Shown one piece after another: positions 31,322 to 32,581 of a DNA stretch of 64,000 nucleotides; positions within the stretch are counted from its first letter, which is position 1, and each line of letters starts with the position of its first letter. The translations under genes were made by a program, and so were the position numbers. The notes beneath the pieces are model-generated. The model was not told the origin of the DNA and did no database searches. It was given only the letters and a program-made list of their open reading frames with translations. This DNA is from Escherichia coli (GTDB lineage: Bacteria; Pseudomonadota; Gammaproteobacteria; Enterobacterales; Enterobacteriaceae). The DNA lies in assembly GCF_029227855.1 (NCBI RefSeq), contig NZ_CP074356.1, one strand, 5' to 3'.

Positions 31322-32581
31322 TCAAGCAATACCCATGCTTGCAGCCAGTGCTTCCAGCGCCTGTTCAAAGCACGCCAGCGGTGCCCGCACGGTGCCTGCG
31401 CCAATCTGCCCGATCCCCTCCTCTTTATGGGCGATACCGGTATTGATGAGTGGCGTAATGCCGGTTTCTACCACGCGACGAATGTCCAGCCCCAGGCACG
31501 CGCCCTGGAAATCCCAGCCGGGGATCTGCAACTGCATATTGCGTTCAAGGTAAATTTCCGCCATTTCTTCAGATACCGCTCTGGCCGCTTCCATGCCACC
31601 CGCACCGACAAAGCGTGTTACGCCAGGTGCGGCGATCATTGCCGCACCACCGATACCAAAGGTTTCGGTAATCGCGCTATCGCCCATATCCGGGTTCGCC
31701 TGCTCCTGCGAGAAGCCGGTGAAAAACAGACCTTGCGGAGTGTTTACAGGCGCAGTAAACCAGCGTTCACCCAGCCCGCTTACCCGAATCCCGAACATAT
31801 TGCCGTTGCGGGTCATAGCCGTAACGATGCTGCCTGCGCGGATCATCGCGCCTGCATCCATCGCCGCCTTGCAGTAAGCCATCGCGAGGTTGAGGAAGAA
31901 CTGATCGGTCACGCTGAGAAAATCCATCACTTCCGCGATGTGCTGTTTATCATGATCGAGGCGAGCAATTTGTGGGGCCAGCGCACGCATTAACAGTGCA
32001 GAGGAAGCAATGTTGCGTTGATGGAACTCATCGCCCATGGTAATGCCCTGCGCCATCATCGCGGTGAGATCGATACCGCGCTCCATGCGCCCCAGCGCCG
32101 CGCTTAATACTGGCATTAACACATCGCGCATCCAGCGATGGCGAGTCAGGACATCTTCGCCGTAAGCGCCAAAACGCATCACTTTGCCGATACCTTCGTT
32201 GAGGTTGCAGTAGGCCCGGTTGCCGTCGGTCACGTTCTCGACCACCAGCATCGGCATACTGGCAGAAGTAATGCCACCCATTGGCCCGACGGCATTTACA
32301 TGGTGACAAGGAATGAAGTTCACTTCCCCCTGCTCCAGCATTGCCAGCGCCTGCGCTTCATCTTTCGCCCAGCCTTCGAACAGACATGCGCCCACGCACG
32401 CCCCTTTCATGGGTCCGGTCATCTCCTGCCAGCGCATTGGCGGCCCGGCGTGAAGCAGTGTTTTGCCCTTGTTTAGTTCGCTGATAAGTGAAGAAGCCGG
32501 TTGCACATCCAGCCAGTGTGGACGAGCGCGACGAATTTGTTCGATAACCGCAGCATTGGCTTGCGCCACTGATGTAAACAT
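31322..32581 (-). CDS. ylbE: YlbE (DUF1116), intact
   Basis: A continuous 419-aa ORF. Confidence 0.8.

Follow-up and report, generated by a model that had tools for sequence, protein, structure and literature searches.

The ylbE (allG) reading frame of an Escherichia coli strain is intact, as it is in current K-12, and the K-12 pseudogene is a legacy of an older reference sequence

The 419-codon open reading frame identified as ylbE in the 64-kb stretch of Escherichia coli DNA analysed here (the window) is almost certainly an ordinary, intact E. coli ylbE, a gene since renamed allG that stands second in the allFGHK (fdrA-ylbE-ylbF-ybcF) operon, and the split K-12 pseudogene listed under that name is the state of a superseded sequence, U00096.2, so that K-12 and this strain do not differ biologically in this respect. 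Gene identity, intactness, collinearity with orthologues, operon context and the presence of the same intact gene in K-12 MG1655 are all directly observed. The gene, its function and its annotation history in K-12 are already documented.

In the ORF listing, the ylbE frame starts at an ATG and contains one stop codon, the terminal one. A Shine-Dalgarno-like sequence, AAGGGG, lies 6 nt 5' of the ATG, and 9 nt separate that ATG from the stop codon of fdrA. A frame of this kind is far beyond chance. The translated protein scores 326.7 bits with the Pfam PF06545 profile (cutoff 27), over profile positions 1-215 of 215; this family was formerly DUF1116 and is presently named "Oxamate carbamoyltransferase subunit AllG". 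In the NCBIfam profile search no model matched either AllG or AllH, so that the naming of these two proteins comes from Pfam and from identity to K-12. Aligned with 22 orthologues of 418-421 aa (23 sequences in all, 72-99% identity), the window AllG is collinear throughout, has no indels of its own, and has no mismatch at any column that is invariant among the 22. The exact AllG sequence of the window is absent from a collection of 15 billion proteins, as judged by exact-sequence look-up. The gene is annotated as ylbE in the closest genome, that of JNEC-KY178. The initial annotation had described ylbE as an intact 419-codon ORF, and this is borne out by the exact frame, its single terminal stop, the Pfam AllG match and the lack of any internal defect. 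A search of the frame for an in-frame defect relative to the 22 orthologues turned up none that can be demonstrated; the A388E substitution, discussed below, is a rare missense change.

The four genes of the operon (Table 1) are transcribed from the minus strand in the order fdrA, ylbE, ylbF, ybcF; ybcF-ylbF-ylbE-fdrA is simply the order met from left to right on the plus strand. All four are intact, begin with ATG and have lengths identical to those in K-12, and the start of allK overlaps the stop of allH by 4 nt. The genes allD, allC and allE are divergent from allF-allG-allH-allK, again with all members intact, and are followed by the remainder of the allantoin regulon: glxK, ybbY, allB, allW, glxR, hyi, gcl, allR, allA and allS. 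This surrounding gene content was taken from the annotation of the collinear JNEC-KY178 genome. The view that the complete ybcF-ylbF-ylbE-fdrA set is potentially functional in this strain holds insofar as four intact frames of K-12 length are present, but not insofar as it makes the set particular to this strain, as the intact state is the norm for the species. The spacer between purK and ybcF (29480-29605) is 126 bp long in the window and 194 bp in K-12, where one more REP-like palindromic unit (GCCGGATGCGGC...GCATCAGGC) is present; the lineages therefore differ in REP copy number.

Table 1. Positions of the genes, sites and variants discussed, numbered from the first nucleotide of the window.
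Feature	Position	Strand	Description
ybcF = allK	29606..30499	minus	297 aa; catabolic carbamate kinase; NCBIfam NF006926 equivalog, 618 bits; AA_kinase Pfam match; 3 aa differences from K-12
ylbF = allH	30496..31311	minus	271 aa; AllH (DUF2877) subunit; Pfam PF11392, 100.5 bits; 4 aa differences from K-12
ylbE = allG	31322..32581	minus	419 codons and stop; AllG (DUF1116) subunit of oxamic transcarbamylase
AllG codon 388 (GAG, Glu)	31418..31420	minus	A388E, nt 1163 C>A, within a conserved motif
G5 run, ylbE nt 252-256	32326..32330	minus (CCCCC on plus)	GGGGG in window and MG1655.3; GGGG in the W3110 record
ylbE nt 114	32468	minus	G in window and MG1655.3; A in U00096.2 and W3110; silent in K-12 (E38)
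fdrA = allF	32591..34258	minus	555 aa; CoA_binding and Ligase_CoA domains; NCBIfam NF004760 (FdrA), 1035.8 bits; 11 aa differences from K-12
allD-allF intergenic region	34259..34574	minus	316 bp; allF promoter; putative AllS (-203/-144) and ArcA (-142/-83) binding fragments
allC (allantoate amidohydrolase)	35646-36881	plus	codon 232 at 36340, Met>Arg in the HAGTTPM motif
SNP relative to JNEC-KY178	29547		purK/ybcF spacer
SNP relative to JNEC-KY178	31956		ylbE codon 209: window keeps K-12 Asp, JNEC-KY178 has Gly
SNP relative to JNEC-KY178	36340		allC codon 232, Met>Arg in the window
SNP relative to JNEC-KY178	48930		allS, synonymous

The initial annotation had given ylbE of K-12 MG1655 as a frameshifted, split pseudogene, and this proved mistaken for the current reference: NC_000913.3 annotates ylbE (b4572, YP_009029994.1) as an intact CDS of 1260 nt at 548357..549616. 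The K-12 MG1655 AllG resembles that of the window in its length of 419 aa, its start and stop, its position in the operon and the intergenic spacers of 9 and 10 nt on its two sides. The two proteins are identical at 413 of 419 residues without gaps, and the genes differ at 29 nucleotides, 23 of them synonymous, with no indels. The six substitutions, written from K-12 to the window, are E38K, I81M, S355G, A388E, E414A and G419A. All but A388E are at variable positions, whereas A388E affects a conserved small-residue position.

The frameshift itself can be located precisely. In the W3110 record, NC_007779.1, ylbE is 1259 nt long (extracted locus 1582-2840) and is flagged as frameshifted, and it differs from the MG1655.3 gene in exactly two ways, an A in place of G at nt 114 and one G missing from the run at nt 252-256. 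Loss of that G brings the first stop to codon 87 and leaves a separate open stretch of 344 codons. The U00096.2 and W3110 versions of ylbE thus occupy the same locus as the window gene, between the same flanking genes, but differ from it in having GGGG at nt 252-256, A at nt 114 and the stop at codon 87. Aligning the window to K-12 places the frameshift site at this run, which is complete in the window, and the frame reads through. The gene starts at 547,581 in W3110 and at 548,357 in MG1655.3, an offset of 776 bp.

The same two differences are on record in the literature on MG1655. One paper gives them, relative to the U00096.2 reference, as 547,694 A>G and 547,831 +G (PMC5460176), and another as a "silent substitution at position 114" and a change at "base number 253" (PMC4404585); they have been described as variations of common MG1655 stocks (PMC4404585, PMC4759930), with the intact ylbE allele carried by MG1655 stocks and other K-12 strains (PMC4759930, PMC3045373). 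EcoGene 3.0 regards the discrepancies as small errors of sequence in U00096.2 that U00096.3 was to put right (PMC3531124). We took the U00096.2 variant positions from later papers that cite or re-find the changes, and confirmed them by direct comparison with the W3110 record. The primary source for the variations among MG1655 stocks is Freddolino et al. (2012).

One could still read the intact frame as a gain or retention specific to this strain, set against a genuine split pseudogene in K-12. The W3110 RefSeq record does still flag ylbE as frameshifted, and older papers count it among the pseudogenes of the MG1655 reference genotype (PMC4759930, PMC5460176), but the same papers show the intact allele to be present in MG1655 stocks, NC_000913.3 contains an intact CDS, and the EcoGene account has the discrepancies as sequence errors corrected in U00096.3. 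Deletion of allG in MG1655, moreover, alters the phenotype, and AllFGH derived from MG1655 is active (PMC11326118), which shows by experiment that ylbE works in that strain. With the four-G allele also confined to 4 of 5,426 complete genomes, we consider a genuine K-12 pseudogene highly improbable. The split pseudogene goes back instead to U00096.2, an earlier version of the sequence.

The distribution of ylbE across the species accords with the reading of the window gene as an ordinary one. Megablast found ylbE, annotated under that name, in 5,420 of the 5,426 complete genomes of E. coli, with identities of 95-99%, and the match is full-length in 5,417; O157:H7, clone D i14 and JNEC-KY178 all have the gene annotated as intact. 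The intact gene is the species norm, the current K-12 reference included, and is not a feature of this strain. A 41-mer carrying the four-G allele occurs in W3110 and in three "essential oils" strains, CIT, LIM and CAR (NZ_CP026026-28). In all four the match lies at about 547,814, a coordinate like that of U00096.2, the old MG1655 reference, which for CIT, LIM and CAR suggests that the four-G alleles come from reference-guided assembly or consensus rather than from real mutations. In W3110 the allele may be real, or the record may share the legacy error. A separate case is AR_0085 (NZ_CP029741.1, extracted locus 2774-4439), in which a real deletion has left a truncated fdrA joined to the C-terminal 35% of ylbE and both genes are flagged as partial pseudogenes; this is a rare genuine loss of allF and allG.

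What the gene does is known from recent work on K-12. In MG1655, deletion of allF, allG or allH abolishes the formation of oxamate from allantoin, the loss in the case of allH being a reduction, from 17.7 to 1.2 mM, and oxamate formation is restored only by allFGH together (Kim & Kim 2024, PMC11326118). Purified AllF-AllG-AllH, cloned from MG1655 DNA, has oxamic transcarbamylase activity (EC 2.1.3.5), the K-12 proteins converting oxalurate and Pi into oxamate and carbamoyl phosphate (PMC11326118). AllK, the product of ybcF, is reported to be the catabolic carbamate kinase (PMC9843812). Both AllS and ArcA activate the operon, the former binding at -203/-144 and the latter at -142/-83 (PMC12535856). 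Carried over to the window, AllG would act as one subunit of the AllF-AllG-AllH oxamic transcarbamylase, and AllK would use the carbamoyl phosphate, with ADP, to yield ATP, NH3 and CO2, so that the transcarbamylase reaction would feed the production of ATP and NH3 by AllK during anaerobic growth on allantoin. These steps would make up the final part of the anaerobic "oxamate branch" of allantoin catabolism, which AllS and ArcA turn on. Enzyme activity and regulation are both taken from the K-12 literature, and we infer that they extend to the alleles of the window, AllG with A388E included; the allFGHK alleles of this strain are on this basis presumably active.

Two comparisons help to place the AllG family. 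A solved structure, PDB 3clq (an "Uncharacterized protein" of 421 aa from the DUF1116 family), aligns over its full length with the window AllG (query 2-416 to chain 7-420, E = 7.7e-112) and shares its conserved motifs, including IAHKE-x-GIG-x-IGAG. At the position of Glu388 in the window its residue is Pro, its identity is far below that of the enterobacterial orthologues, and its PDB record assigns no function. The classical transcarbamylases, among them the ATCase PyrBI, the OTCases ArgF and ArgI, and YgeW, perform the same class of reaction as AllFGH, carbamoyl transfer to or from carbamoyl phosphate, but have no sequence similarity to AllFGH, and the oxamic enzyme (OXTCase) differs further in needing three different gene products (PMC11326118). 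The Pfam matches in the window are to the AllG, AllH and CoA-ligase families, not to the OTCace family.

The A388E substitution deserves closer attention, as it lies amid the invariant residues H385, G389, G391 and Q392. Among the close cluster representatives that cover position 388 (n=117), 105 have Ala, 12 have Pro and none has Glu, while among roughly 106 distant representatives (50% clustering) the residue is Ala, Pro, Gly or Ser in 100 and Glu in three. A 41-mer specific for the Glu allele was found in one of the 5,426 complete E. coli genomes, that of JNEC-KY178, against 5,412 for the Ala-allele control. On these comparisons A388E is a rare, lineage-private and non-conservative change, and not a demonstrable defect.

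A second unusual substitution was found in allC, where position 232 is Met in both K-12 and JNEC-KY178 and Arg in the window. The Met of the HAGTTPM motif is conserved in the five solved homologues compared (PDB 1z2l, 4pxd, 4wjb, 5thw and 5i4m), which comprise AllC structures and three distant amidohydrolase structures. The Arg allele occurs in one of the 5,426 complete genomes, the bloodstream isolate CAVP773, whose allC belongs to another haplotype, with differences at 30 nt, implying that M232R arose there independently. Since AllC acts upstream of the oxamate branch, M232R bears on whether the pathway is potentially functional in this strain.

It may be, then, that the ylbE frame is intact and the pathway is crippled all the same, by loss-of-function missense changes in AllG (A388E, lineage-private), in AllC (M232R, strain-private) or in both. 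A388E replaces a small residue among invariant ones at a site that is Ala or Pro in all 117 close clusters, and is shared with a single other genome, and the replacement of a conserved motif Met in AllC is just as rare. Glu, Arg or Asp is nevertheless found at the AllG position in nine distant homologues, so that a charged residue there is not forbidden by the fold, and M232R has appeared independently in a second clinical lineage. The remainder of the operon, moreover, is under purifying selection, as is visible in the largely synonymous differences in ylbE. Weighing these points, we regard a crippled pathway as unlikely. A broader version, in which missense changes behind intact frames are costing the lineage its anaerobic allantoin catabolism, seems to us a long shot. 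On that version A388E and M232R, both in conserved motifs, could be hypomorphic or adaptive. The preferred reading is still that of an ordinary intact allG in an ordinary operon, and no observation speaks against the identity or the intactness of the gene.

The promoter region of the operon was also compared. The spacer between allD and allF has its K-12 length and carries nine SNPs relative to K-12, all of them between -195 and -107 (window 34366-34454) and all inside the published AllS and ArcA EMSA fragments, with none in the other ~227 bp. O157:H7 has eight of these nine as well, and variation along the same stretch, from -200 to -104, is seen in clone D i14, a B2 strain, too. This stretch of the allF promoter is thus a polymorphic hotspot across E. 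coli lineages, and the SNPs common polymorphism. We considered a strain-specific regulatory change arising from the nine SNPs and rejected it, given the sharing with O157:H7, the variation in clone D i14, and the position of K-12 itself as the outlier at several of the sites.

The closest genome, JNEC-KY178, is a clinical isolate from Japan and is collinear with the whole window at 99.992% identity (NZ_AP045174.1 3605834-3669834), differing from it by the four SNPs of Table 1 and by a 1-nt indel in an A run at 56438. The four SNPs all fall in the allantoin region (29.5-49 kb), but we make no claim that this clustering is meaningful, as a range test done by hand gave p ~0.09 and the region was chosen post hoc. 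Both ends of the window carry RHS elements according to the JNEC-KY178 annotation: the left end (~1-11000) carries an RHS core protein, PAAR and RHS fragments and an ISAs1 transposase, and the right end (~52000-56400) a 4.2-kb RHS core and a YbbD-family gene. Internal repeats of 200-330 bp, 94% identical, link ~1017-2638 with ~5314-7646.

The "ylbE pseudogene" of K-12 stems from U00096.2 and is still found in the W3110 RefSeq record, as well as in a few assemblies that were probably reference-guided, and it is for that reason unfit for use as a K-12 marker. If A388E or M232R did impair the pathway, the strain would offer a small example of metabolic erosion at the strain level behind intact open reading frames.
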